From Bacteroidia bacterium (GTDB taxonomy: Bacteria; Bacteroidota; Bacteroidia; M30B66): DNA of 64,000 nucleotides. A program made the translations under genes and the position numbers. Under the pieces are notes generated by a model, which did not search any database, was not told where the DNA came from, and saw nothing but the letters and a program-made list of their open reading frames with translations. Location: the NCBI GenBank assembly GCA_046302715.1, contig JBKCHQ010000106.1, positions 2,091 through 66,090 of the forward strand. Reading direction: 5' to 3'. Shown piece after piece: positions 1 through 26,714 of the stretch; the stretch's first letter is position 1, and every line of letters starts with the position of its first letter.

Positions 1-493
1 TTTCGAAAAAGTTAAAGTTATCAATCACATCCTTTTTGATGTGTACCAGTTTTCGGGCAATACAACCAACTATCACGCCCCACAAAACTCGTATATCAAT
101 AATGTACTTGAAAGCAAAAAAGGGAATCCCCTTCTTTTATCCATCTTGTATTCGGTAATTGCCCAAGGACTAAACATTCCAATTTACGGGGTTAATTTAC
201 CAGAACACTTTATTTTGGCGTATCGAGATGAGTTTACGCTCCATAAAGAAGGAGAGGCCGAACCTATACTTTTTTACATCAATCCCTTTAGTCGCGGTGC
301 GGTATTTAGCAAACGCGAGATTGACACCTTCTTGAAGCAATTGAAGCTCGAGGCCAATCCCATTTTCTATGAAAGTTGCCCCAATACTGCGATAATAAGC
401 AGGCAGCTGCGAAATTTGATTCACTCCTACGAAAAATTAGGGTATCCCAATAAAGTAGAGGAACTCAATAGCTTACTAGAGATTCTTCAGTGA
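1..493 (+). CDS. SirB1/UPF0162-like transglutaminase-like family protein, C-terminal portion; 5' end lies outside the window
   Basis: ORF 41..493 begins with a GTG and the frame stays open upstream to position 2. The segment GNPLLLSILYSVIAQGLNIPIYGVNLPEHFIL resembles the transglutaminase-like core of SirB1-family proteins. Confidence 0.4.
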   Translation, partial: FEKVKVINHILFDVYQFSGNTTNYHAPQNSYINNVLESKKGNPLLLSILYSVIAQGLNIPIYGVNLPEHFILAYRDEFTLHKEGEAEPILFYINPFSRGAVFSKREIDTFLKQLKLEANPIFYESCPNTAIISRQLRNLIHSYEKLGYPNKVEELNSLLEILQ

Positions 494-494
494 T

Positions 495-1193
495 TTATGG
501 GGTGGAACCCTTTCTTTTTAGTTTAATAGGGAGTTTTTGCGGCCGTCGTTTTTTAGGGTAACGCTTGAGAATAAAACGGGAAACCTGGTCGGGAGCTCTG
601 CTGCATCTAAACGTCCAGCCCTGATTTAAATCTAATTTTCGATAAATAAAAAATGAACCATCTTTCAACGCCGAAACCGGAGCCAGCAGCAGCGTTAAAA
701 ATTCTGTAGTTGGCGTTGAATAGCCAAATAGTACAAAATTATTTAAGGCATAAACCGATCGTTCAGGCTTTCGTTTTCTTTTATATTCTAAAAAAACACT
801 ATCGCACCTAATTTCGATGAGTCGGCCCCTGCGTGGCATTTCGGCAGTGTCGCCCTTTAACTTATAATAGAGCATGTTCTTTTCCCTAAATAAAGGCCGC
901 CGCTTAGAATTTGCATTTGAAAATTCTAACTGATAGGACTCAGTTTTCAAGCCTTTTTCTATAGCCTGACTTTCCAGCAAAAAGCCGTATGTAAGTCGAA
1001 TAGGAAGTTCATATTCGACCGTATCGGAGGCATCCAACAATCGAAAAAAAATAAGGCTGTCATTCGTGTTCAGGATGATGCATTCCAGCAGTACATCCTT
1101 TTCCCGTAAAAAAATAATGTCCTGCCCGATGCTCTTTCCGCAGTTAATTACGAACAGTATAACAATGAAGCATTTAAAGCCGCTGGAAGACAT
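495..1193 (-). CDS. hypothetical protein with hydrophobic N-terminus (possible lipoprotein or secreted protein)
   Basis: 232-aa ORF filling the gap between flanking genes. Basic C-terminal tail and no recognisable catalytic motif. Confidence 0.35.
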   Translation of the reverse strand: MSSSGFKCFIVILFVINCGKSIGQDIIFLREKDVLLECIILNTNDSLIFFRLLDASDTVEYELPIRLTYGFLLESQAIEKGLKTESYQLEFSNANSKRRPLFREKNMLYYKLKGDTAEMPRRGRLIEIRCDSVFLEYKRKRKPERSVYALNNFVLFGYSTPTTEFLTLLLAPVSALKDGSFFIYRKLDLNQGWTFRCSRAPDQVSRFILKRYPKKRRPQKLPIKLKRKGSTP

Positions 1194-1245
1194 TTAATCA
1201 CAAAATTAATGTAAAGCTGGGCACGATTACTATTTTTGTGATACT

Positions 1246-1743
1246 ATGAACGGCCAACTTATTTTAACGCCTCAAAAAGTGAAGCAAAAACTGAAGCGCA
1301 TTGCACTTCAGATACTGGAACGCAATCACGAAAAAAAAATAATATTGGTTGGAATAGAAAAACGAGGCCTTGAATTAGCGCAACTTTTAGCCGAAGATTT
1401 ACAAAGATTTGGACCGCATCCCGTTACTGTGGCATTCATTCGAATCAATAAAGAAAATCCTTTAGAAAATCCAGTTGTGAGCCATATTGAACATGACGAT
1501 CTCCTGCAGTCTGCGTTAATTATTGTAGATGACGTGCAAAATTCAGGGCGAACTATGATGTATGCTATTAGGCATTTTCTGGACCTTCCGATACCCTCTA
1601 TCCAAACCTGTATTTTGGTGAATCGTGGGCACAATCAATTTCCTGTGCATTGCGATTATGTAGGTCTAGCGCTTTCAACCACCTTGCAGGAACATGTACG
1701 TGTAGAGGTTAGCGGCAGCGAAGTTGAGGTGTATTTAAGTTAG
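1246..1743 (+). CDS. pyrR: PyrR-like phosphoribosyltransferase (pyrimidine operon regulator / uracil PRTase family)
   Basis: The PRPP-binding motif IIVDDVQNSGRTM is present. The length and the N-terminal ILERN...LVGIEKRGLELA region follow the PyrR layout. Confidence 0.55.
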   Translation: MNGQLILTPQKVKQKLKRIALQILERNHEKKIILVGIEKRGLELAQLLAEDLQRFGPHPVTVAFIRINKENPLENPVVSHIEHDDLLQSALIIVDDVQNSGRTMMYAIRHFLDLPIPSIQTCILVNRGHNQFPVHCDYVGLALSTTLQEHVRVEVSGSEVEVYLS

Positions 1744-1756
1744 AAGATATAAATTC

Positions 1757-1800
1757 AATAAGGTCGCAATACCCAAGAGGGCCTTATTATTCTTTTTGCT
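1757..1800. terminator. possible bidirectional terminator between convergent pyrR-like and nusB genes
   Basis: 9-bp stem AATAAGGTC/GGCCTTATT (one G-U pair) with a 13-nt loop, followed by ATTCTTTTTG. Weak. Confidence 0.3.
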
Positions 1801-1806
1801 CAAGAT

Positions 1807-2751
1807 TTATTCAACCAAGCCGCGGCCTGCTTTAACAATCTTATTCTTCTTCTTATAGTCGGCCACCAATTTATCTAAAATCCCGTTGATGAAGTTTTTA
1901 CTCTGTGGGCTTGAGTAATCTTTAGAAAGTTCTATGTATTCGTCGAGGCTTACTTTGACTGGAATTGACGGAAAGCAGGTTAATTCGCACATGGCCATCT
2001 TCATCAGAATAATGTCCATTTTCGCCACACGCTCTATTTCCCAGTTTTCCGCTTTTTGAGCAATCTCTTTCTCAAAATCCTCGTGATGCAAAATAGTTTG
2101 ACGGTATAATTCAGTCGCAAATTTTCGGTCCTCGTCAGATTCTTTCTGCAATGGCATCAATTTAAAGGCGCACTCTTCCTCCTTTATGTTCCTAATGGTT
2201 TTATAAACGCCATGCTGCATTATTTCAATCTCATCCAGCCAGTAAATGCTTCGCTCCTCCAACATTAATCGAATAAGCTCTGAAGGGAATACATGATGTT
2301 CGTAAATCCAGCAAACCAATTCCTGGTCTTCTTTAAAACTTGGGGCGTTTTTATGGAGATACTCTACAAATACAGCTTCATTGCGAAACTGCATGAAGAT
2401 TTTACGCACTAACTCCTGCTGCCCAATCCAGTTAATTTTAAGCTTATAGAGCTTTTCCTGCAGACCTTCGTGATTGCCTATTTTTTGAATAATGCGATTC
2501 TCAACGAAATTAAGGCTCGGATTTAGATCTTCTGCTGTTGGAAGGTGCTTTTGCCTGCGTTCATGAATGAGATTTTCGGCAGCATCTCTAAATTCAGGAA
2601 GAATAGAAAGATACGTTAAGTAAATCTCATACACCTTGTCGATGCTATGAAACAATTCTTTTTCACCCAGACGCACATCGTCCTGCCCCGACTGAAAAAA
2701 GGCATAAAGCGCTTTAAGTACTTTTTCTCGTATATGCCTTCTGTTGAGCAT
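1807..2751 (-). CDS. nusB: transcription antitermination factor NusB (long Bacteroidota form)
   Basis: The N-terminus RRHIREKVLKALYAFFQSG is the canonical NusB start. Its start lies 2 nt downstream of the ldh-like stop codon. Confidence 0.75.
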   Translation of the reverse strand: MLNRRHIREKVLKALYAFFQSGQDDVRLGEKELFHSIDKVYEIYLTYLSILPEFRDAAENLIHERRQKHLPTAEDLNPSLNFVENRIIQKIGNHEGLQEKLYKLKINWIGQQELVRKIFMQFRNEAVFVEYLHKNAPSFKEDQELVCWIYEHHVFPSELIRLMLEERSIYWLDEIEIMQHGVYKTIRNIKEEECAFKLMPLQKESDEDRKFATELYRQTILHHEDFEKEIAQKAENWEIERVAKMDIILMKMAMCELTCFPSIPVKVSLDEYIELSKDYSSPQSKNFINGILDKLVADYKKKNKIVKAGRGLVE

Positions 2752-2752
2752 G

Positions 2753-3865
2753 TTAAAAGGATAGTTTTATGCGGCCTACGGAGTCGATTCTTTTTTCTGC
2801 TAATCGTTTAGCCGCTTCGATGGTAGGGATATTTTCATTTCGGGCAATGCCAAAAACATGACAAGCAGCATCGTAGATATGTTCCGTTTTTGCGTAAGCA
2901 CGTTCACGGTTATAGCCTTCAAGCTCTATAGATACATTGATAAGCCCGCCAGCATTAATCAAAAAATCTGGAGCATACAAAATGCCTTTATCCTTTACCA
3001 TTTGACCATGTACTTCTTCTTCGGCCAGCTGATTATTGGCTGCACCAGCGATAATGGAGCATTTCAAACGTGAAAGTGAATCGGTATTTACCGAAGCGCC
3101 CAAGGCACAAGGGGCATAAATATCGATGTCTAAATCGAATAACTGATCGCCTTCCACTACATTTACGCCTGAAGATTGGGTCAATACGCTGTTGATATTG
3201 TCTTTATTGATGTCGTTAATCCAAACTTTAGCCCCTTCTTTTACTAAATGGGCAACCAGATGCTGGCCTACTTTTCCAACGCCCTGAACAGCGACTTTTT
3301 TGCCATTTAAGCTATCATTCCCAAAAACCTCTTTGGCAGAAGCCTTCATTCCTAAATAAACTCCGTACGCCGTAACCGGAGATGGATCGCCGCCACCGCC
3401 TAGTATTTCAGGTAAACCGGTAACATGCTTGGTTTCCATGGCAATATATTCAATATCGCGTGTACCAATATTCACATCTTCGGCGGTGATGTATCTGCCG
3501 GCAAGGCCATCAACAAATTTACCGAAGCGTCTGAGCATAGCTTCAGTTTTCTGATTACGGGCATCGCCAATTATTACAGCCTTTCCACCACCCAGATTTA
3601 AACCGGTAATTGCTGCTTTATAGGTCATGCCCCGCGACAGGCGCAATACATCGGTAAGCGCCTCTGCTTCGGTTTTGTATGTCCACATGCGCGTACCGCC
3701 CAATGCAGGACCTAAATGGGTATTGTGTATGGCAACTATGGCTTTTAAGCCTGTGGCTCGATCATAAAAATGTACTACCTGTTCGTGGCCGCCTTGTTCC
3801 ATGCCTGTTAAGGCTGAGGTCACTTCTTGGGCAACCGATGTATTTAATTCAGTTGTTTGAGCCAT
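2753..3865 (-). CDS. Glu/Leu/Phe/Val dehydrogenase family (leucine dehydrogenase-like)
   Basis: 370 aa, with the GGGK substrate-loop motif (GLNLGGGKAVI) and a Rossmann GVGKVG motif. Length matches leucine or valine dehydrogenases. Confidence 0.8.
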   Translation of the reverse strand: MAQTTELNTSVAQEVTSALTGMEQGGHEQVVHFYDRATGLKAIVAIHNTHLGPALGGTRMWTYKTEAEALTDVLRLSRGMTYKAAITGLNLGGGKAVIIGDARNQKTEAMLRRFGKFVDGLAGRYITAEDVNIGTRDIEYIAMETKHVTGLPEILGGGGDPSPVTAYGVYLGMKASAKEVFGNDSLNGKKVAVQGVGKVGQHLVAHLVKEGAKVWINDINKDNINSVLTQSSGVNVVEGDQLFDLDIDIYAPCALGASVNTDSLSRLKCSIIAGAANNQLAEEEVHGQMVKDKGILYAPDFLINAGGLINVSIELEGYNRERAYAKTEHIYDAACHVFGIARNENIPTIEAAKRLAEKRIDSVGRIKLSF

Positions 3866-4008
3866 GTGATTTGTTTTCTTTTGGGAGTTTGAGTTAGGTC
3901 AATAGCTGGGATTTTCAATATTTTTGCTTCAGTATTAGTATCCCCGCAAATCGGGGCACAAAAGTACACGATTTTACACACCCCGCAAAATTCAAGAAGC
4001 AGGAACCT

Positions 4009-5811
4009 ATGAAATCATTGAAATTTCTTAATGCCTATCTCCTGCGCTATAAAACAAGGCTGTTATTGGGGGTGGTTTTTGTTACGGTATCGAACATTTT
4101 TGCCATTTATCCGGCCGAGATTTTACGCAAGGGTATTGATATGGTGCACCATGGCATTCAGGTGTATTTTCAGTTTAAAGGCGCATCGCTCGAGAGCGAC
4201 TTGATTAGTGGCTTTTTTACGCTATTGCTTATTTTAGGTTTGGCTGTAATCTGCACAGCGCTTTTAAAAGGGCTATTTATGTTTTTTATGCGGCAAACTA
4301 TAATTGTAATGTCGCGCCTGGTGGAGTATGATTTAAAAAACGACATTTTTGCTCAATATCAGCGGCTCGATTACGCTTTTTATAAAAGAAATAAAACCGG
4401 CGACCTTATGGCTCGCATCGGCGAAGACGTGAGTCAGGTGAGGATGTATGTAGGGCCAGCCATAATGTACGCGATAAGTACGGTTACCTTGTTTTTTCTG
4501 GTACTAGGACGCATGGTTTCGGTAGAGCCCGAGTTAACACTTTATGTGTTGAGCCCGCTGCCTATTTTGGCTTTGGCCATTTATTTAGTGAATTCCACTG
4601 TAATCAAGAAAAGCGAACGTGTGCAGCAGCAACTTTCGTTAATATCGTCACGTGTGCAGGAAAGCCTGTCTGGTATTAGGGTTGTTAAAGCCTATGCTAA
4701 AGAACATTATTATGCAAACGTTTTTGGGGCGGAGACCGAGGAATATAAAAACAGAAATTTAACATTGGTGCAAATAAGCGCACTTTTTCAGCCGCTCATT
4801 GTGGTATTAATCGGCTTAAGTACACTAATTACAGTGTATGTGGGTGGGTTAAAAGTGCAAACGGGCGAAATTTCGGCAGGTATTATTGGCGAATTTATTC
4901 TTTACGTAAATATGCTTACTTGGCCGGTAGCCAGTATTGGCTGGGTAACTTCTATTGTTCAAAGAGCCGCCGCTTCGCAGGTACGTATTAATGAGTTTAT
5001 GGAACAAAAGCCCGGTGTAGTTAACGAAACAAGCGAGCCATTTACGCTGCAAGGTAACATCGAGTTTAAGGAGGTGTATTTCCGTTATCCCGAAAGTGGT
5101 ATAGAGGCCTTACACGATATTAGTTTTACCCTGGAAAAAGGAAAATCGTTGGCTTTTGTGGGCAGAACCGGATCGGGCAAAAGTACTATTGCCGCTTTGG
5201 TTACACGACTTTATGATGTTGACCATGGCCAAATTTTGATTGACGGTAAATCGCTCCAGAATATTAATCTCGATCATTACCGCTCTTCGCTTTCGTATGT
5301 TCCGCAAGATGTATTTCTTTTTTCAGACACCATAAAGGCAAATATCTCTTTTGGTTTTCATCCCTCGCAGGTGCCTCAAAATGAAATGCCACTCATTGAA
5401 CAAGCTGCTACGGATGCTGCAATATTAGAACACATCGAAGCATTTTCTGAAAAATTTGAAACTCGAATTGGCGAAAGAGGGGTAACGCTTTCGGGGGGAC
5501 AAAAGCAACGAATTTCAATTGCTCGGGCTCTTGTGCGTAATCCTCAATTATTAATTTTCGATGATTGTTTAAGTGCTGTAGATACTGCTACCGAAGAAAC
5601 TATATTAAACAATCTAAAGCGAAAAATGGAGGGTAAAACTTGCATTTTTATTGCACATCGCATTTCAACCATTAAGCATTGCGATGAAATTATTGTTCTT
5701 GAAAATGGCCGTATAGCCGAAAAAGGATCGCACCAAGAGCTTATTGCCCAAGAAGGGATATATGCTTCGATGTACCGAAAACAATTGCTCGAAGAAAAAT
5801 CCTCTGTTTAG
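4009..5811 (+). CDS. ABC transporter permease/ATP-binding fusion protein (MsbA-like exporter)
   Basis: 600 aa with six N-terminal transmembrane helices, Walker A GRTGSGKST, the ABC signature LSGGQKQRISIARAL and Walker B LLIFDD. Confidence 0.85.
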   Translation: MKSLKFLNAYLLRYKTRLLLGVVFVTVSNIFAIYPAEILRKGIDMVHHGIQVYFQFKGASLESDLISGFFTLLLILGLAVICTALLKGLFMFFMRQTIIVMSRLVEYDLKNDIFAQYQRLDYAFYKRNKTGDLMARIGEDVSQVRMYVGPAIMYAISTVTLFFLVLGRMVSVEPELTLYVLSPLPILALAIYLVNSTVIKKSERVQQQLSLISSRVQESLSGIRVVKAYAKEHYYANVFGAETEEYKNRNLTLVQISALFQPLIVVLIGLSTLITVYVGGLKVQTGEISAGIIGEFILYVNMLTWPVASIGWVTSIVQRAAASQVRINEFMEQKPGVVNETSEPFTLQGNIEFKEVYFRYPESGIEALHDISFTLEKGKSLAFVGRTGSGKSTIAALVTRLYDVDHGQILIDGKSLQNINLDHYRSSLSYVPQDVFLFSDTIKANISFGFHPSQVPQNEMPLIEQAATDAAILEHIEAFSEKFETRIGERGVTLSGGQKQRISIARALVRNPQLLIFDDCLSAVDTATEETILNNLKRKMEGKTCIFIAHRISTIKHCDEIIVLENGRIAEKGSHQELIAQEGIYASMYRKQLLEEKSSV

Positions 5812-5820
5812 GTTTAGATT

Positions 5821-6687
5821 CTAACGGGGCTTTGCCAGCCCTTTTTCAGGTTTTTTGAAGTTTTTCTGTTCCTCTTTGTCGTTTCTGGCCTCGAAATTTC
5901 TGATAAACTTCCATTTACCTTTTTCGAAAACGTAGGCATCGGTAGAAAAATCGGGACTATAAAATGCATACTGGCCCTCCAACGTAGAATTTGGCGGCAC
6001 CAGATGGTCGAAGACTATATGCTGGTTGGTCTCGAAATAACGCAGACTTACAGCTGCATCCTCGGCATATTCAAGCAAAACTCGATGCTTAAGAATCTTA
6101 CCCTCCTGAAAAATTGGAGATCCAAACTTAACATTCTTACCAGTTATCTGCATAACGTCAATAATCTTTCGGTTGCTAAGGGCAGTATTGCCGTCCCAAC
6201 CTAAAAGCGTGTAGGTTTTTTTACGCTTGTATTTTGTATAAATTATCTTGTAATACAAAGCTCCGTACCAATGAGCAGCATTTAATGCCCTAAATTCAGG
6301 TTTAGAAATACTGTCCGAATCATCAATTAAAACTAAGGTCTTACCTCTAGCTTTTTTAGAATCGGCGAATCTAACGCGTCCGTAATATTTGTACGTTCCG
6401 TCTAATTGTGGAATATTCCACGTTATCAGCAGAAAGGTATTGTCGGGCGCACGTAGGACGGAAATGGACCTTATGGTGTCTAGGCCATTAAACGAAGATT
6501 GGGGCAGGCTTAAAACAGAATCAATGAGTGTCTCCACTTTTCGGCCAAACTCCATTCTTTTTTCTGCATCAGAATCATTAAGCATGGCTCGGGCACTTTC
6601 AGAAAGCCCCATCTGGCCGTAAAGTCCGGAAATGGAAATGCTGTAAATGAAGATTATGCGTCGAAAAACCATCCCTTTGAGGTGCAT
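5821..6687 (-). CDS. hypothetical secreted protein, last gene of the BatA-like / dihydroorotase-like unit
   Basis: Signal-peptide-like N-terminus (MVFRRIIFIYSISISGLYGQ). Its start overlaps the 3' end of the upstream dihydroorotase-like gene by 19-34 nt. Confidence 0.45.
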   Translation of the reverse strand: MHLKGMVFRRIIFIYSISISGLYGQMGLSESARAMLNDSDAEKRMEFGRKVETLIDSVLSLPQSSFNGLDTIRSISVLRAPDNTFLLITWNIPQLDGTYKYYGRVRFADSKKARGKTLVLIDDSDSISKPEFRALNAAHWYGALYYKIIYTKYKRKKTYTLLGWDGNTALSNRKIIDVMQITGKNVKFGSPIFQEGKILKHRVLLEYAEDAAVSLRYFETNQHIVFDHLVPPNSTLEGQYAFYSPDFSTDAYVFEKGKWKFIRNFEARNDKEEQKNFKKPEKGLAKPR

Positions 6688-7931
6688 GTTCCGTAAATCT
6701 TGCCCTGTAACTGCATGCCCGGGTAAGGCGAATTCGAAGATTTTGAGAATATCATTTCCTCCGTAAACGTAAATTGCTCCGCTGGCGTATATATAAAGAA
6801 ATTGGCCGGAGCTCCATCTTCAATTCTCGGGATCTCTTTACCGACAATTTTTCGGGGATTAATCGAAAGGGCGCGGATTAAAACATCGATATCTGAATCA
6901 CTATTTAAGGCTTTACGTGCAGCCGCATAAAGACATTCAATGCCTTCGATCCCAAATCGGGCATACGCAAATTCAACATCTTTATGCTCAATTGGCTCAG
7001 GCCGGTGATCAGAACACAATACGTCAATGGTCCCGTCGCGCAAGCCTTGAATAAGTGCAATTCGATCATTTTCGCTCCTTAAAGGAGGCCACACTTTATA
7101 ATTACTATCGAACTTTTCAAGACATCCATCATTAAAAAGCAGATGATGCGGGTAGGTGCTGCAATACACCTTAATGTGTGCAGACTTAGCTTCTCTAATA
7201 ATATCCACCGATTTGGCACAACTTATTCCTGCAATAAATATGGGAACATCGTGATATTGAGCTAAAGTAATAGCCCGCTGAATACCGAGTATTTCGCTTA
7301 TTTCAGGCGCACTTTTTAATCCCAATCGCGTGCTGCTTTCGCCTTCATTCACTAAGGCCCCCTGAGTTATTGCGGCATCATCGGGGTGCAACATCACTAT
7401 ACCTCCTGATAATTTGGTGTACTGGAGCGCCAAATGCAGAAGAAGCGTGTTGGACAAAGCGCTTTTATCGTCGGTAAATACTGCGACCCCTTCCTGTTTC
7501 AAGGCCACCATTTCGGTTAGATCTTTTCCCTTCATACCAACCGAAAGTGCACCCGCTGCGACAAATTCAACAGGTAAATCGGCAGTGGATTGATGGATAA
7601 ATGCTGCAGCCCCACGATGATCCGTTACCGGAAGTAAGTCTGGCATCAGGTTTAATGAAGTTACTCCACCACGCATGGCTGCATTAGATAAACTTTCAAA
7701 GGTTTCGCGTTCTTCAAACCCAGGCTCTCCACCTGTAACTTGAAAATCGTAAAGACCGGGTGAAGCCAAAAGTCCACTGCAATCGAAAACCTCAATTTCG
7801 AATGAATTATCTGTTTGTGCGTTTATATGGATTATTCCGTCTCTTACTAAAATGGAGCACAGTTGATGGTGTAAATTACTTTCAGGATGTGCAATGCGTA
7901 CGTTTTTGAATAGAACCGCGTGCTTCTTCAT
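6654..7931 (-). CDS. dihydroorotase-like amidohydrolase lacking metal-binding residues (PyrC'-like pseudoenzyme)
   Basis: The amidohydrolase fold aligns to class I dihydroorotase. The HxH motif before ..PG is replaced (DFQVTGGEPG versus canonical DxHVHxRxPG) and DHAPH is replaced by DHRPEP. The start is placed at MKKHAV, where the ATG overlaps the upstream stop as ATGA. Confidence 0.65.
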   Translation of the reverse strand: MKKHAVLFKNVRIAHPESNLHHQLCSILVRDGIIHINAQTDNSFEIEVFDCSGLLASPGLYDFQVTGGEPGFEERETFESLSNAAMRGGVTSLNLMPDLLPVTDHRGAAAFIHQSTADLPVEFVAAGALSVGMKGKDLTEMVALKQEGVAVFTDDKSALSNTLLLHLALQYTKLSGGIVMLHPDDAAITQGALVNEGESSTRLGLKSAPEISEILGIQRAITLAQYHDVPIFIAGISCAKSVDIIREAKSAHIKVYCSTYPHHLLFNDGCLEKFDSNYKVWPPLRSENDRIALIQGLRDGTIDVLCSDHRPEPIEHKDVEFAYARFGIEGIECLYAAARKALNSDSDIDVLIRALSINPRKIVGKEIPRIEDGAPANFFIYTPAEQFTFTEEMIFSKSSNSPYPGMQLQGKIYGTCTSKGWFFDA

Positions 7932-9970
7932 GATTTCATAAAGCGTATGAGTAATATTTCGAGAAGGAAAAACAATAATGCAGCAATGATGAAGTATTTC
8001 CAAATGGGCTTTCCTTCATCAAGTTGTGCGATACTGTTTCCCAATTCTTTTTGATTGCCGTCGAGAATTTCCAGAGAGGTGAAACCAGCTGCATTGAAGC
8101 GTTTTAGCAAATTCTCCTTATTTTCGAACTTCATTTCCGACTCTTCGCGCGGGTAATTGAACGATGCCCATCCCTTAATGCTATCGCCTATCATGATCTT
8201 GTAATTGCCTGCTTTAGGCAATTCATTGTTAACATATAGTTTAACAATACCGTTTTGCATTTCCTGTTCAGGTATAATTTCGAATGTGCCGTCTTCCGAT
8301 TTGAGCTTCAGAGTTTTGTCGCCACCTGCTACCACACCCGACAACATTATTGCTTCATTTCTGCCAAGGGTATAATACAATTTCGAGGAGGGGAAAGAGT
8401 ACAAGCCAATTTTATATAGCGTAGGTACAAAAAGCGCATGTTGTTGAAAATTACCGCCTACGTCATTGAGCTCAGTGCAGAACAAATACACCTTCCCTTT
8501 GCCCGAATCAAAGCTAGAAGCAAACAAGTCGCCATTGGGTAAACGCATGATTTCTTCGGAGCTGTTTTTTGAACCGCTGGTAATGCTGAAATATTTTTTT
8601 ACACTGGGCAAATCAATATTTTGAGGTACGCGTTCAAAAACATCATCATAAATTGGATGCCTGAAATTTAAATTCCCAACTCGTTGCGACAGCTCCTTTA
8701 AAGCACCATAACCGCCTGCATTGAGCGTTTGGCATAGCGATGTGTAACCGCTTACATTAGCCTGTAAGCTGGGGAAAACCGCAAGACTGCCGCCCTCACC
8801 GATGAACTTACTGATTTCTTGAACCATTCCGCTCGAAATCTCTTTTAAGCCACTCAATACGATTAAATTGTATTCAGGAAACTTCGAATAATCCAGCTGA
8901 AGCGAGGTAACGCTCGTTAAATTAAATGCAGGATTTTTCCCATAAATCTTTTCAAGGTAATTGCCCCCACCCTCATCTTGTACCACTAATACATTAAGTT
9001 TTTCAGGCACGTTGTAGCTGAAATAGAAACGATCGTCGAAAATGATGGGGTGGTCGTTAATGGATAAACTGCCAAATTGATAGCCCGATTCGGGATTGGA
9101 AAAATTCATTTCGGCAATTTTTGAAGAATCAGCTCCAGCACTAAACGAACTTATACCTTTTTGAAGTTGATTAATGGTAACCGATGCCGCAATATTTTCA
9201 GCCCGTTGTTTAGAGTGATTGGTCACTGAGAATAATAATCTATCGGATGTTGATTTTTGGCGATATGGGGTTTCAAACCATAGGGAATCTATAGAAACAT
9301 TGCCTTCGGCTTTGTTTTGTAAATGAATGAGGTTAAGTTGAACGGTAGTGTCGGCTTTTGCTTGTTCAATATCAGCGGCTCCACTTTGGAAGTCGCTTAT
9401 TAAAAAGGAAATGGGGTTTTTGATTTTATTGTAATCAAACAGTTCGTTTTGACGGGCAATAATCTCTGAAGTTTTGCGGTAGCTGGCACTTAAATCCACT
9501 TCACGAAGCATTTCGAGAAATTGGTCCTTCGAAAGCAGTCGCTGATGCTTTCCTTCAAAGTCGTTGGTTATTAATTGAAAGCGATCTGTTTCTTTGTAAG
9601 AAGATGCGATGGAAGCGGCGTGTTTTTTTGCCATTTCGAGTAATGTGGCCGTTTCGCTTTTGCCGTTCATAGAGAACGAGTTATCAATATATATACTAAT
9701 GGCCCTACTTCCGGTTTTTGCTTTATGCACCGAGGGTATGAAAGGGCGGGCAAAGGCTATTACCAAGGCAGCTAAAGCCAGACACCGCGCAATTAAAATG
9801 AGGATGTGCTTGAGTTTTGAGCGACTTTGTGTTTCTTTTTGGAGCGATATTAAGAAACGTACATTGGTAAAATAAACCGTTTTAAACTTCCTGAAGTGAA
9901 AGAGGTGTATAATTATGGGGATAGCCAAGCTAAACAATGCCCATAAAAAAGCCGGATTCGTAAACTTCAT
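7928..9970 (-). CDS. BatA-like N-terminal double-transmembrane-domain protein with large extracytoplasmic region
   Basis: The N-terminus MKFTNPAFLWALFSLAIPIIIHLFHFRKF plus a second helix matches the BatA-type two-helix anchor. 680 aa, with a C-terminal transmembrane helix. Confidence 0.55.
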   Translation of the reverse strand: MKFTNPAFLWALFSLAIPIIIHLFHFRKFKTVYFTNVRFLISLQKETQSRSKLKHILILIARCLALAALVIAFARPFIPSVHKAKTGSRAISIYIDNSFSMNGKSETATLLEMAKKHAASIASSYKETDRFQLITNDFEGKHQRLLSKDQFLEMLREVDLSASYRKTSEIIARQNELFDYNKIKNPISFLISDFQSGAADIEQAKADTTVQLNLIHLQNKAEGNVSIDSLWFETPYRQKSTSDRLLFSVTNHSKQRAENIAASVTINQLQKGISSFSAGADSSKIAEMNFSNPESGYQFGSLSINDHPIIFDDRFYFSYNVPEKLNVLVVQDEGGGNYLEKIYGKNPAFNLTSVTSLQLDYSKFPEYNLIVLSGLKEISSGMVQEISKFIGEGGSLAVFPSLQANVSGYTSLCQTLNAGGYGALKELSQRVGNLNFRHPIYDDVFERVPQNIDLPSVKKYFSITSGSKNSSEEIMRLPNGDLFASSFDSGKGKVYLFCTELNDVGGNFQQHALFVPTLYKIGLYSFPSSKLYYTLGRNEAIMLSGVVAGGDKTLKLKSEDGTFEIIPEQEMQNGIVKLYVNNELPKAGNYKIMIGDSIKGWASFNYPREESEMKFENKENLLKRFNAAGFTSLEILDGNQKELGNSIAQLDEGKPIWKYFIIAALLFFLLEILLIRFMKS

Positions 9971-10025
9971 CGCCCCACAAAGATATAAGCATTTTTAACC
10001 TCATTAAACCATTTCGTTAATTTAT

Positions 10026-10730
10026 TTGAAGTACATGAGTGGTTTCGTAAGTTTTGACTTATTTCGTTTTGTGAAACTTTCGCCCTCTGGTATTCAGCGT
10101 AAATTAGCCTTGGGCTTGCCCGGTCCATCGGCTCAATGGTTAATGGCGCCTGCAAATCGGCCACAACAGACTGCCGAGCAGGAATGGTACACCCGTTCAG
10201 CCGTTTTGATTCTTATATTGTTTGGCGGTAATGAGCCTGAAATAGTGTTTATACGTAGGGCCAGTTATAATGGAGTGCACAGCGGGCAAATCGGTTTTCC
10301 TGGGGGTAAATTTGAGCCCGACGAGCACAGTGCAGCAGAGGTTGCGCTGCGAGAGGCCAATGAAGAAATCGGAATAAATAGGAGTGACGTAGAGATTTTA
10401 GGCGCGTTGAGCCCTTTGCATATTCCGGTAAGCAAGATGCGGGTCGAACCTATTTTAGCAGTTTCAGAAATGATGCCGCAATTCGTACGCAATGAGCGGG
10501 AAGTAGAGGAAATATTGGTAAAACCGCTTGACTTTTTTCTACAAATCGATAATATTGTAGCGTATGAATTGAAGCAATTTATTGGAGAAATAAGAAAAGT
10601 GCCCGCATTTAATACGAAGCCGGTACCAATTTGGGGAGCGACAGCCATGATAATGTCAGAGTTGCTAACCCTGGTTTATGATGCACATTGGTTACATGTG
10701 GCGCAGCGCAATTTTTATAAGAATCAGTAA
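10026..10730 (+). CDS. NUDIX hydrolase, CoA pyrophosphatase type
   Basis: Nudix box GQIGFPGGKFEPDEHSAAEVALREANEEIGI. The upstream LILILF segment is typical of the NudL family. Confidence 0.7.
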   Translation: MKYMSGFVSFDLFRFVKLSPSGIQRKLALGLPGPSAQWLMAPANRPQQTAEQEWYTRSAVLILILFGGNEPEIVFIRRASYNGVHSGQIGFPGGKFEPDEHSAAEVALREANEEIGINRSDVEILGALSPLHIPVSKMRVEPILAVSEMMPQFVRNEREVEEILVKPLDFFLQIDNIVAYELKQFIGEIRKVPAFNTKPVPIWGATAMIMSELLTLVYDAHWLHVAQRNFYKNQ

Positions 10731-10886
10731 GAATACTCCACCGCCAAGAATAAGTGCAATAAGTCCTGAATTTTGATACTGACTCCGGTGAATACCCTTA
10801 TCTTTTTTGAATGACCAGATTAAAATTCCGATAAATGCAACAGCAAAAAGAAGAGCAAATACCCAATGTCCCGGCCCGATGTTCAT
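10692..10886 (-). CDS. possible small two-helix membrane protein
   Basis: 64-aa ORF with two hydrophobic helices separated by a basic loop, sitting 20 nt downstream of the T9SS cargo gene on the same strand. Confidence 0.3.
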   Translation of the reverse strand: MNIGPGHWVFALLFAVAFIGILIWSFKKDKGIHRSQYQNSGLIALILGGGVFLLILIKIALRHM

Positions 10887-10906
10887 TCACTAATTTTAGG
10901 TCGAAA

Positions 10907-11626
10907 TTAGTGCTTTATCGTAATTTTTCCAGTACGAAGAGCTTTGGAGCCTTGCTGCAATCTATATATGTATACCCCTGATGGTAGGTTAACCAACGAT
11001 ATTTGGTGATTCGTGTTTTGTGCAATGAGTGTTTCGCTCAAAACCTTAGTGCCCAACATATTAAATATTTCTAGCTCAGTATTTTTCTTTAATCCATTGC
11101 ACGTTATGTTTAAGATATCGCTCACTGGGTTGGGATAGGTTTTTACCGACCATTCGGTAGCTTTGACATTTGGGGAACTTAATGGAGCAATATCGAATTT
11201 TACTACCAAGACAGAAGAATCAGCTTCGTTTTGTGCATTATAGAAAGTGTAATGGATTTCTGCAGTGCCGGCCATTGAATCGGGACGCAAATGAACAGAA
11301 AATACGTTGGTGGTATTTCCGCCCTCAATATCAAGTGGAGTAGGGGATTGACTAACACTGGGAAGATAGCAGGCAGTCCAGCAAAAAAAGTTTGTTGATC
11401 CTTGGATGTTCTGAACAATACGCCTCCTTACATGGAACGAACCATATTCGTTAGATGAATTAGTAACAGGAATTTGACGTTCAATTTCGTACTCCTCGGC
11501 TCCAGCAGTGATCACAACCGGACTGCTAGCTCCAAAGGTAATGGATTGCGAATTAATTGATTTTGAAAACGATACCAGAACTAATGTTAAACTTAAACAA
11601 ATTGCTGCAAGTCTTGAAGTGCCCAT
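10907..11626 (-). CDS. small secreted protein with T9SS C-terminal sorting domain
   Basis: N-terminal signal peptide. The C-terminal ~80 aa (YPNPVSDILNITCNG...LPSGVYIYRLQ...KITIKH) is a typical Por-secretion sorting domain. Confidence 0.6.
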   Translation of the reverse strand: MGTSRLAAICLSLTLVLVSFSKSINSQSITFGASSPVVITAGAEEYEIERQIPVTNSSNEYGSFHVRRRIVQNIQGSTNFFCWTACYLPSVSQSPTPLDIEGGNTTNVFSVHLRPDSMAGTAEIHYTFYNAQNEADSSVLVVKFDIAPLSSPNVKATEWSVKTYPNPVSDILNITCNGLKKNTELEIFNMLGTKVLSETLIAQNTNHQISLVNLPSGVYIYRLQQGSKALRTGKITIKH

Positions 11627-11778
11627 AATTCTTGATTTATTTTAATTTCAAATTTACGGCTTTTACCCAAGCCTGCATCACTGATCAATAATTTTTGCCT
11701 TTTTTTTTATGGAGCAGGTTGTTTTATTAAGAAATTCTTAATTTTGAAAATTCTCAACAAGTCAAATTCAACAATCAC

Positions 11779-13251
11779 ATGAAAAAATTTTTACAAAATG
11801 TAAGTCTTGCAATGGGCTTATTAGTAGCAGGGAGTGCAAATGCGCAGTTGGCTAACGGAGCGTTGATGCCTGCGGGATTGGTATTAACCGACATTAACGG
11901 AAATACACATGATTTAGATGCCTTGCTTAGCCAAGGTAAAGCATTGTTTATTGATGTGTCTGCAACATGGTGTGGGCCATGCTGGGGCTTCCACCAAACA
12001 GGAATTTTAGAGGAGCTTTATGCTACTTATGGTCCCGAAGGAACCGATGAGGTTCGTGTATTCTTTATCGAGGGTGATGGTCAAACAACAATTGATCAAC
12101 TTAACGGAATTGGGTCGGGAACACAAGGAAATTGGGTGGCTGGTACACCATATCCTATTGTAGATGATGCAGCAGCTGGCGACGCGTTAAGCGTTGGATT
12201 TTTCCCAACATTATACATGATCTGTCCAAGCCGCCGTGTATGGCACATTTCACCATCGGAAGTTTTGGCATATTGGCCTTCTTCTTTGCACATTGCCAAT
12301 GCACGTGCTTGTAATAACCCTATTGATGCGGTTATGAATGGTTATACCGGCGAAACTTCAACATGTGGTTCACTTTCTCCCTTGAAAGTGCAAATTCAAA
12401 ATAAAGGTGTAGAAGCATTAACCAGCGCAACTATTACTGCTTCTTTAGGAGGTACACAAGTGGCCACTACAAATTGGACTGGTACACTGCAGCAATTCCA
12501 GGCTACCGAAGTATCATTTGGTTCTGCTGATATTACTTCATCTTCTGATCTAGTATTTACGGTTACTCCTACGGGAACGGATGTTGCTCCAAACGACAAT
12601 ACGTTTACTCAAGCAATTGATATGGCCCCTACCATCTCAACGACAGATGTAATCGTTAAAATCACTACTGATCGTTACGGTTCTGAAACTACTTGGAGAA
12701 TTCGTCGTCCAAATAATTCTATTCTTGCATCAGGCGGACCTTACGATGACATGGCTGCAAACGGAGTTACTGTTCAACCAGAAGAAACAGTAACATTGCC
12801 TGCTAACGGATGTTATAAATTCGAAATTTTAGATTCGTATAGTGATGGTATTTGCTGCGCTTACGGCGAAGGGTCATACGAAGTAACCGATGCCAATGGA
12901 GTTTCTCTTGTTAGTGGTGGAGAGTTCGGTGCGACTGAAAAAAGAGCACTAATCGGTGAAGGCGCTTCTTCAATCGATGACAACCAATCTGTAGTTTCTG
13001 ATTTTACTGTGTATCCTAACCCATCAAATGGTTTAGTGAATATTTCGATGAACTTAACTTCAAATGACGATGTTACTTTGAAAGTTTACAATTCTATCGG
13101 AGCGTTGGTTCATGAAAACGATTTGGGTCGTTTAACGGTTGGTTCTTATTTCTACCCACTTAATTTATCAGGCTATGCAGCTGGAATGTACCGTGTTGTT
13201 GCGGTTTCATCAAAAGGTGTTAGCGTAAATTCAGTACAAATAAGCCGTTAA
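11779..13251 (+). CDS. T9SS-sorted protein with N-terminal thioredoxin-like domain (WCGPC active site)
   Basis: Signal peptide, then the thioredoxin-fold motif FIDVSATWCGPCWGFHQ. The C-terminus (VYPNPSNGLVNISMNL...GMYRVVAVSSKG) is a T9SS sorting domain. Confidence 0.7.
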   Translation: MKKFLQNVSLAMGLLVAGSANAQLANGALMPAGLVLTDINGNTHDLDALLSQGKALFIDVSATWCGPCWGFHQTGILEELYATYGPEGTDEVRVFFIEGDGQTTIDQLNGIGSGTQGNWVAGTPYPIVDDAAAGDALSVGFFPTLYMICPSRRVWHISPSEVLAYWPSSLHIANARACNNPIDAVMNGYTGETSTCGSLSPLKVQIQNKGVEALTSATITASLGGTQVATTNWTGTLQQFQATEVSFGSADITSSSDLVFTVTPTGTDVAPNDNTFTQAIDMAPTISTTDVIVKITTDRYGSETTWRIRRPNNSILASGGPYDDMAANGVTVQPEETVTLPANGCYKFEILDSYSDGICCAYGEGSYEVTDANGVSLVSGGEFGATEKRALIGEGASSIDDNQSVVSDFTVYPNPSNGLVNISMNLTSNDDVTLKVYNSIGALVHENDLGRLTVGSYFYPLNLSGYAAGMYRVVAVSSKGVSVNSVQISR

Positions 13252-25502: not shown

Positions 25503-26684
25503 TTAAATATGGTGATGCACACTTTCTTGGTAGAAAACGTGATTTGGATTATTGACTGGCTTACTCGCCAATCGTGAGAAAACTACATAGCAAAACAAAC
25601 CAATAAAACCAAGCATGGTCCCGATTTCCATCCATCCAAGGTGCCAATGATCTTTCAAAACACCAGGCGTGATCATTACAAAATTGTCGCTCCAGTGTCC
25701 GATTAAAATTACCACTCCCACTACTTTTAAAAGTCCATAGGTTCTTTTTGAACCTCGCTTCATTAAAACCAAGAATGGGAAGAAAAAGTTCAGTACGAGA
25801 TTAAATATAAATAAGAACTTATAATTCTCGAAACGGTCCATGAAGTAGGTTACTTCCTCAGGAATATTGGAATACCAAATGAGCATAAACTGCGAAAACC
25901 ATAAATACGTCCAAAAAACCGAGAATGCAAACATGAACTTTCCTAAGTCATGAATATGGTTATCGTTTACTTCAGGTAGAAGTCCTTTTGATTTTAGGTG
26001 CAATACAATCAAAGTGATGGTAGTTATTGCACTAACAAAGAACCCTGCAAAAGTGTACCATCCGAATAACGTAGAGAACCAGTGGGTATCAATGGACATA
26101 ATCCAATCCCATGCTGAGGTTGATGATGTTACGGCAAAAAATACTAAAAACCACGCGGCTAAACTTTGACTGCGTTTCCAGTTTTGATAATCATAACCTT
26201 GCATTTCCAATTCAGAACGTTTCATAAATGCTCTGAAAAATAGTATCCAGCCAGCCAAATAAACAATAGTGCGGATAATATAGAAAACCGGATTCAAAAA
26301 AGCAGCTTTACCCGCAATGATGGCATCATAATGTTCGCTTTTAGGGTCGTGAACATGAGGATCGGCCCAATGGTAAATATGATTAACGTGGAGGGCTGAT
26401 AATATAACAACTACTCCAAATATTGCTGCACCAACTGGTAAAAAACTGGCAACTGCTTCCATTGGGCGTTTCACAGTTGCCGACCAACCAGCTTCAGCTG
26501 CATATTGAACGGCCATAAAAAACAAGGCTCCTAAACCCAATGCCATGAAGAAAAATGAATTATGTAGGAGTGTAGGCCATGCCCTATGAGAGTCCACGAT
26601 GAAGCCGCTTACTATCGTCAGCAAACCAACGCCCATGAGAACCATACATATTTTCTTAAACGAGTCTGAAAAGGTGTAATTCAT
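25503..26684 (-). CDS. actF: alternative complex III subunit ActF (NrfD-like membrane subunit)
   Basis: 393-aa polytopic protein. Sits between actE and coxB as in Bacteroidota ACIII-caa3 operons. Confidence 0.65.
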   Translation of the reverse strand: MNYTFSDSFKKICMVLMGVGLLTIVSGFIVDSHRAWPTLLHNSFFFMALGLGALFFMAVQYAAEAGWSATVKRPMEAVASFLPVGAAIFGVVVILSALHVNHIYHWADPHVHDPKSEHYDAIIAGKAAFLNPVFYIIRTIVYLAGWILFFRAFMKRSELEMQGYDYQNWKRSQSLAAWFLVFFAVTSSTSAWDWIMSIDTHWFSTLFGWYTFAGFFVSAITTITLIVLHLKSKGLLPEVNDNHIHDLGKFMFAFSVFWTYLWFSQFMLIWYSNIPEEVTYFMDRFENYKFLFIFNLVLNFFFPFLVLMKRGSKRTYGLLKVVGVVILIGHWSDNFVMITPGVLKDHWHLGWMEIGTMLGFIGLFCYVVFSRLASKPVNNPNHVFYQESVHHHI

Positions 26685-26714
26685 TGTATTTGAATTGAAT
26701 TGTCCTTGTTTAAA

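Follow-up and report, generated by a model that had tools for sequence, protein, structure and literature searches.

Background

Inactive relatives of dihydroorotase are known from the class A aspartate transcarbamoylase (ATCase) of Pseudomonas, in which the PyrC' chain (also called pDHO) has been proven necessary for ATCase assembly and is encoded by a gene that overlaps pyrB (PMC7053772). In Bacteroidota, a dihydroorotase of another kind, type III, is known from P. gingivalis (2GWN; PMC9771888). The subject of this report is a dihydroorotase-like gene of a Bacteroidia bacterium, which lies on the minus strand of a stretch of 64,000 nucleotides ("the window"; contig JBKCHQ010000106.1, positions 2,091 to 66,090, with coordinates below counted from the first letter of the window). 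Its product of 425 residues is best read, from its sequence, as a catalytically dead descendant of a type-I dihydroorotase, and this pseudo-dihydroorotase lies in an undescribed, widely conserved gene context, directly behind the gene for a BatA-like membrane protein. A first-pass annotation of the window had proposed a non-catalytic, dihydroorotase-fold protein joined in one unit to a BatA-type membrane protein and a secreted protein; part of that proposal is borne out and part is revised below.

A degenerate type-I dihydroorotase

Residues 7-416 of the dihydroorotase-like protein align over the full length of the Aquifex aeolicus dihydroorotase (3d6n/6gde; E 3e-59), and the 3mpg and 4yiw chains are matched at E about 1e-57. 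The score against TIGR00857 (pyrC_multi) is 273.3 bits, just under the cut-off of 279.05, and the protein falls far below every NCBIfam dihydroorotase equivalog cut-off, the best being NF006558 (287.7 versus 645). A complete type-I ligand set consists of His-x-His, a bridging Asp or carboxylated Lys, two further His and the catalytic Asp. Relative to Aquifex, three ligands are lost (H61 is Q64, H63 is T66 and H232 is G235) and three are kept (D153 as D155, H180 as H182 and D305 as D308), leaving the pattern Q64, T66, D155, H182, G235, D308, in which three of six ligands are present and neither metal site is complete. Residues that bind substrate have also changed: R65 to G68, N95 to D98 and H309 to E312. 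Full-length homology is thus found together with scores below the family cut-offs and a broken ligand set and, like PyrC', the protein is a dihydroorotase homologue whose metal centre, to judge from these substitutions, would not be functional. Structural motifs of the family are still conserved, among them EPG, NEGxxSxxLG, KVxPPLR and DH.P...EK.

The motifs read as the first-pass annotation had quoted them, and its candidate pseudoenzyme is upheld by the three missing ligands and three altered substrate residues. Its wording that the binuclear-metal ligands had been lost was too strong, since half of them remain; in the altered "DHAPH" motif the final His is replaced, but the Asp is still there. 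It had also allowed that a sequencing frameshift might have displaced the ligands. Four independent samples have contigs that encode exactly the same 425-residue protein, which rules out sequencing error, frameshift or assembly error. In public data it is named 'MAG: dihydroorotase [Bacteroidia bacterium]' (MAG, metagenome-assembled genome).

The start adopted for the gene is the ATG at 7931. A TTG start at 8003, which would give 449 residues and came from a program-made list of open reading frames (ORFs), was dropped because public gene calls, homologue N-termini and the conserved ATGA junction agree on the ATG. The three minus-strand ORFs and their overlaps were described correctly at the outset, and only the length of the middle protein needs correction, from 426 residues (the stop codon having been counted) to 425. 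The alignment begins at query residue 7 and Aquifex residue 5, which leaves no space for a signal peptide; on this ground the dihydroorotase-like protein is predicted to be cytoplasmic.

Decay of the metal site is a property of the family. Its 120 best homologues were taken as the family set, and the named matches are all Bacteroidota (Pedobacter, Adhaeribacter, Pontibacter, Kordia and Bacteroidia MAGs). The full HHDHHD ligand set occurs in only 7 of the 120; the other 113 are degenerate, with replacement patterns that vary by lineage (for example QSDHGD, SSYFTD, NSGYNQ and HEGRFG). Among these 113, the six ligand columns stand at the 41st to 87th percentile of column variability, and a 19-sequence sample shows no variation in 38 other columns. 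Conservation is highest in DSNYKVxPPLR (strand 7), LGLKSxPExxE (loop 5) and DGTIDxxxSDH (strand 8). By the measure of these columns the degenerate protein is functional and under selection, though not for a common metal site.

In a neighbour-joining tree the intact HHDHHD sequences are basal, and all degenerate sequences form one Bacteroidota clade. Two intact relatives examined are encoded in the operons pyrR-pyrB-pyrC and pyrB-pyrC-carA, and one of them has an Actinomycetota cluster mate. In the earliest-branching degenerate member (P0105) the gene order BatA-like, dihydroorotase-like, family 2 glycosyltransferase (GT2) is already in place.

Pairing with a BatA-type gene

Gene context was compared in a synteny scan that used one genome per species and gave 80 loci, in which ORFs were called and neighbours clustered. 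In 64 of the 69 loci with enough flank, the gene directly upstream is a BatA-like gene of about 680 codons, read from the same strand. The pairing spans Sphingobacteriales, Chitinophagales, Cytophagales and Flavobacteriales, and in Kordia, too, the BatA-like gene is directly upstream. Of 68 junctions, 40 are overlaps of 4 nucleotides, and in most of the remainder the two genes are separated by at most 54 nucleotides. At the locus under study the junction reads ATG AAA TCA TGA AGA AG, the stop TGA and the next ATG sharing ATGA. The proposed wiring of the dihydroorotase-like gene to a BatA-type membrane protein is therefore well founded, as adjacency across several orders with mostly 4-nucleotide overlaps.

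Downstream of the dihydroorotase-like gene, DUF4199 genes occur in 45 of 69 loci and GT2 genes in 39. Sphingobacteriales have there an acidic 223-residue protein, a DUF4199 membrane protein and two GT2 glycosyltransferases; DUF4199 and GT2 genes are also downstream in Saprospiraceae, and in one locus (L094) that has no BatA-like gene.

The first-pass annotation had seen no pyrB nearby, and this is confirmed on a wider scale. A motif screen of the window gave no ORF with both ATCase/ornithine transcarbamoylase (OTCase) motifs, and none of 84 dihydroorotase-like loci has an ATCase-like ORF (motifs STRTR plus HPTQ) within about 7 kb. Being encoded with pyrB, which is a mark of PyrC', is thus found neither here nor in the relatives; the suggestion that the gene might adjoin pyrB in close relatives, and so be a routine PyrC', does not hold for the degenerate clade. 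The same kind of screen found no separate active dihydroorotase in the window, which covers only 64 kb of the MAG. A 403-residue ORF at 25506..26714 (minus strand) with two DxHxH motifs was seen only in that screen for intact dihydroorotases.

The BatA-like membrane protein

Features of the locus are collected in Table 1. The N-terminal domain of the BatA-like protein scores well above the cut-offs for PF07584 (75.8 bits versus 25.9) and TIGR02226 (two_anch; 69.9 versus 23.05), and both marks of a VWA domain, the fold and the DxSxS metal-ion-dependent adhesion (MIDAS) motif, are present. An AlphaFold2 model made from 36 homologues (predicted local distance difference test, pLDDT, 82) has two N-terminal helices, followed in order by the VWA domain, a beta-sandwich, the GATase1-like domain, a beta domain and the C-terminal transmembrane helix. 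Eight Lys/Arg and one acidic residue are found in the loop that joins helices one and two (residues 26-55); many residues in the loop region of the BatA domain are invariant (H22, L23, F24, F26, R27, F34, N36, F39). The C-terminus of the protein reads RFMKS.

Table 1. Features of the locus (window coordinates)
Feature	Position	Strand	Remarks
Candidate Bacteroidetes-type -7 element TATCTTTG	9978..9985	minus	TAnnTTTG match, 7 nt upstream of the BatA-like ATG
BatA-like membrane protein gene	7928..9970	minus	680 aa; ORF list
N-terminal double-transmembrane BatA domain	9734..9970	minus	aa 1-79; PF07584, TIGR02226
VWA domain	9323..9706	minus	aa 89-216; DxSxS MIDAS motif D96-N-S98-F-S100
GATase1-like / ThuA-like domain	8471..8998	minus	aa 325-500
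C-terminal transmembrane helix	7934..8002	minus	aa 657-679; model helix, hydrophobic sequence
ATGA stop/start overlap, BatA-like / dihydroorotase-like	7928..7931	minus	sequence read directly
Dihydroorotase-like pseudoenzyme gene	6654..7931	minus	425 aa; type-I dihydroorotase fold; no signal peptide
Exported protein gene, fold family without a name	5821..6687	minus	288 aa; alternative start 6672

By the positive-inside rule, the loop and the RFMKS tail would be cytoplasmic and the body of about 580 residues periplasmic. Together with the model this suggests a three-pass inner-membrane protein whose VWA and GATase1-like domains face the periplasm, in agreement with the topology described for TIGR02226. 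Contact of the dihydroorotase-like protein, which lacks a signal peptide, with the VWA or GATase1-like domains is unlikely, because those domains are predicted to be periplasmic. For the same reason the protein is unlikely to dock on the extracytoplasmic region of the BatA-like protein, with which the first-pass annotation had suggested modelling it.

Proposed role and the ATCase-partner alternative

The explanation favoured here, to which a probability of roughly 0.4 is assigned, is that the protein is a dead type-I dihydroorotase descendant that serves as the non-catalytic partner of a membrane or envelope module with the BatA-like protein. In this scheme, an ancestor of most Bacteroidota would have moved a dihydroorotase gene from a pyrR-pyrB-pyrC context to directly behind a BatA-type gene, after which the metal and substrate residues would have decayed differently by lineage. 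In the window, a single promoter ahead of the BatA-like gene probably drives transcription of the dihydroorotase-like gene, whose translation would be coupled to that of the BatA-like gene through the ATGA overlap. Its product would then serve in the cytoplasm as a structural or adaptor subunit, produced at a constant ratio to the BatA-like protein, with which it may physically associate. Conserved adjacency and coupling across orders that have little gene order in common usually mark proteins that act together, and the persistence of both across such orders argues for a functional association of the pseudoenzyme with the BatA-like, DUF4199 and GT2 genes. As the clusters of many relatives also hold the DUF4199 membrane protein and GT2 glycosyltransferases of the polyprenol-phosphate type, its role may be linked to the membrane or envelope rather than be a step of pyrimidine synthesis.

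A more specific version, in which the pseudoenzyme was recruited early in Bacteroidota as the cytoplasmic part of an envelope module comprising the BatA-type protein with its predicted periplasmic domains, DUF4199 and the polyprenol-phosphate-type GT2 enzymes, is less likely than not. One possibility within that version is that the protein connects membrane glycosylation with the supply of pyrimidines or UDP-sugars, or with ATCase itself.

Several observations weigh against a membrane-linked role. About 35 of the 80 loci are from Pedobacter species, so the synteny counts are inflated and not phylogenetically independent. Dihydroorotase-like genes without a BatA-like neighbour occur (L057, L065, L068, L073, L080 and L093), and when orthologues of the BatA-like gene were themselves sampled, two at 39-43% identity (L095 8210-9676 and L096 8076-10013) were not followed by a dihydroorotase-like gene; either gene can thus occur without the other. 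The cytoplasmic part of the BatA-like protein would amount only to the loop of about 30 residues and a tail of 4, and the loop is conserved in BatA-domain proteins generally. For bacterial homologues of type-I dihydroorotase, no non-catalytic role other than partnership with ATCase is documented (PMC7053772, PMC9771888), and loop 5, the element that contacts ATCase in Aquifex, ranks second in conservation among the segments of the degenerate family. Finally, no experiment or paper was found in the literature on the Bacteroidota pseudo-dihydroorotase or its BatA-like pairing.

Some of these neighbourhoods have features of their own. At L093 (7001-9784) the dihydroorotase-like gene (pattern TNALAD) adjoins the gliding-motility genes gldB and gldC on the opposite strand. 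Downstream of the two partnerless BatA-like orthologues are, in one case, a convergent PMT_2 (ArnT-like) glycosyltransferase gene and, in the other, a sulfatase gene.

The strongest competing explanation is that the protein is a PyrC'-type pseudo-dihydroorotase that assembles or stabilises ATCase trimers, with a type-III dihydroorotase encoded elsewhere carrying out catalysis and the BatA-like adjacency being a frozen operon arrangement. It is a tentative but serious possibility, somewhat less probable than the membrane-linked role. The type-I origin speaks for it, as does the near-threshold TIGR00857 score, and the nearest intact relatives are encoded beside pyrB. Type-I enzymes have been proposed to associate with ATCase generally through loop 5 (PMC9771888), which would fit the conservation of the LGLKSxPExxE segment; that motif is, however, conserved in active type-I enzymes too, possibly for structural reasons. 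Pseudomonas offers the parallel of an active enzyme of another type together with an inactive type-I-like chain that ATCase needs (PMC7053772), and the active Bacteroidota enzyme (2GWN) is a distinct and apparently monomeric type (PMC9771888) that matches the dihydroorotase-like protein only in part. Retention throughout a phylum after loss of catalysis would also be explained most simply by a second function that already existed. Against these points stands the genomic record: unlike the Pseudomonas gene with its pyrB overlap, the degenerate gene never adjoins pyrB in 84 loci and is coupled over several orders to membrane-protein genes instead. No pyrimidine-type regulatory RNA was found upstream, Rfam families that include the PyrR-binding attenuator having no match in 1..12000 at E <= 1. 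No biochemical description of a class A ATCase from Bacteroidota was found in the literature, nor anything on the ATCase class of Flavobacteria or Cytophaga. The membrane-linked and ATCase-partner roles are close and not strictly exclusive, as the protein could tether ATCase near the membrane.

A possible residual pocket

The retained ligands raise the question of whether the protein has kept an enzymatic activity, or binds a metal or ligand, by way of a reduced pocket (Q64, D155, H182, D308) that holds one metal and acts on or senses a substrate other than carbamoyl-aspartate. Within its own clade (40 sequences, mean identity 51%) Q61, D153, H180, G232 and D305 (Aquifex numbering) are nearly invariant, and active type-III enzymes tolerate Gln where the first His would be (PMC9771888), a position at which the Zur-regulated PyrC2 paralogues likewise conserve Gln (PMC11672702). 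But H63 and H232 are gone as well, so that neither site has a full ligand set, and the substrate residues R65, N95 and H309 have been replaced. Sister clades with the same gene neighbourhood, moreover, have none of the pocket residues; the Pedobacter clade, for example, fixes N61, G153 and Q305. On this comparison the pocket residues are kept within clades and vary from clade to clade, and a function common to the clades cannot depend on those residues. An active or ligand-binding pocket is for these reasons improbable, and the non-catalytic partner of a membrane or envelope module remains the preferred reading.

The exported protein and expression signals

The third gene may start at ATG 6687, 34 nucleotides inside the dihydroorotase-like gene, or at ATG 6672, 19 nucleotides inside it; public gene calls give 288, 283 or 263 residues. 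Its protein has 310 unnamed homologues and no match in Pfam or NCBIfam, and a confident structure model of the family gave no fold match. In Bacteroidetes, signal peptides are commonly followed by Gln (the "Q-rule"), and the N-terminus of the 288-residue protein looks like a signal peptide followed by Gln.

That all three genes form one functional unit, with the exported protein as a working partner, has little to recommend it: they are co-directional with the 19-34 nucleotide overlap, no terminator-like site on the minus strand or promoter-like motif separates the third gene, and relatives as distant as 52% identity (L005) retain the order, but a profile from 120 homologues places the family beside the dihydroorotase-like gene only in the close relatives L001-L005, homologues at 37-43% identity follow a ferredoxin gene with neither partner nearby, and other lineages have unrelated genes in its position. 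The conserved three-gene unit of the first-pass annotation was dropped on this evidence. The gene is a lineage-specific, recent neighbour and not a core part, though it is probably co-transcribed with the dihydroorotase-like gene. At L085-L087 the homologues lie directly after a gene for a small 4Fe-4S ferredoxin.

TAnnTTTG is the consensus of the Bacteroidetes -7 promoter element. Of three minus-strand matches at the unit, only TATCTTTG precedes a gene start, and it may act as the promoter; those at 8509 and 6123 are deep within coding sequence. There is no terminator-like site on the minus strand inside the unit and a single one on the plus strand; sigma-70-like sites occur at chance level (9 versus 10.0 expected). 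One transcript for the three genes would be the simplest reading. In the window as a whole, TAnnTTTG is rarer than chance (57 matches versus 75 expected), yet many of the matches closely precede gene starts, where such an element would be looked for; examples are 1231-1238 (+), 1201-1208 (-), 3919-3926 (+), 3959-3966 (-), 9978-9985 (-), 11649-11656 (-) and 11739-11746 (+).

Other genes of the window

A 165-residue phosphoribosyltransferase is encoded at 1246..1743; its best models are PyrR, below their cut-offs (96.5 bits versus 138). It had been mentioned as a PyrR-like regulator near the locus, but four genes lie between, it is on the opposite strand, and it shows no link to the BatA-like/dihydroorotase-like unit. 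A gene for a CoA-pyrophosphatase-like NUDIX hydrolase (10026..10730, plus strand) is divergent from the BatA-like gene, with 55 nucleotides between the two starts, and the unit is also flanked by the gene (10907..11626, minus) of a small protein that bears a C-terminal sorting domain for type IX secretion. Further off, at 1807..2751 (minus), is a 314-residue NusB homologue in which the NusB domain occupies only residues 172-295, after a long N-terminal extension without a family match. At 2753..3865 (minus) is a Glu/Leu/Phe/Val-type dehydrogenase whose closest model is the ScyB tryptophan dehydrogenase (412 bits versus a cut-off of 600).

Comparison with known systems

Every public name seen for the protein is 'dihydroorotase' or 'dihydroorotase family protein', and metabolic reconstructions may therefore count a step that the protein probably cannot perform. 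Should it prove to be an ATCase subunit, it would represent a second, independently evolved class-A-like ATCase, in Bacteroidota, with the partner gene unlinked from pyrB. Should it work with the BatA-like, DUF4199 and GT2 proteins, it would be a case of a bacterial metabolic enzyme fold re-used as a membrane-associated adaptor, and would provide a first handle on the widespread, uncharacterised BatA-type protein of about 680 residues.

The BatA-like protein is about twice as long as BatA or BatB of the Bacteroides aerotolerance (Bat) operon, from which it differs by an added beta-sandwich, the GATase1-like domain and the C-terminal membrane anchor. Its gene is not in a moxR-bat operon and is paired with the dihydroorotase-like gene instead.

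Collapsin response mediator proteins (CRMPs) have the cyclic-amidohydrolase fold without an active site, and are kept as scaffolds or adaptors; they derive from dihydropyrimidinase, not from dihydroorotase. A fungal pseudo-domain of the same fold has likewise lost its active site and been kept as a scaffold or adaptor, which indicates that the fold tolerates a purely structural role (PMC8442968). The bacterial protein would be similar to both in this respect, although the fungal domain and the CRMPs arose independently, in eukaryotes, and the fungal domain is fused within a multienzyme protein.

With the active type-I dihydroorotases of Aquifex aeolicus (3D6N) and Bacillus anthracis (3MPG) the protein shares its full-length alignment and conserved structural motifs; it is set apart from them by the replacement of H61, H63, H232, R65, N95 and H309 and by scores below the cut-off of all NCBIfam dihydroorotase models. 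The closest counterpart is the PyrC' (pDHO) chain of the class A ATCase of Pseudomonas. Each is a chain of about 45 kDa that resembles type-I dihydroorotases, has an incomplete metal centre and is presumed to be non-catalytic, and in both cases a dihydroorotase of a different type is presumed to carry out the reaction. Unlike the gene of PyrC', that of the Bacteroidota protein is near pyrB in none of 84 loci and overlaps a BatA-type gene.

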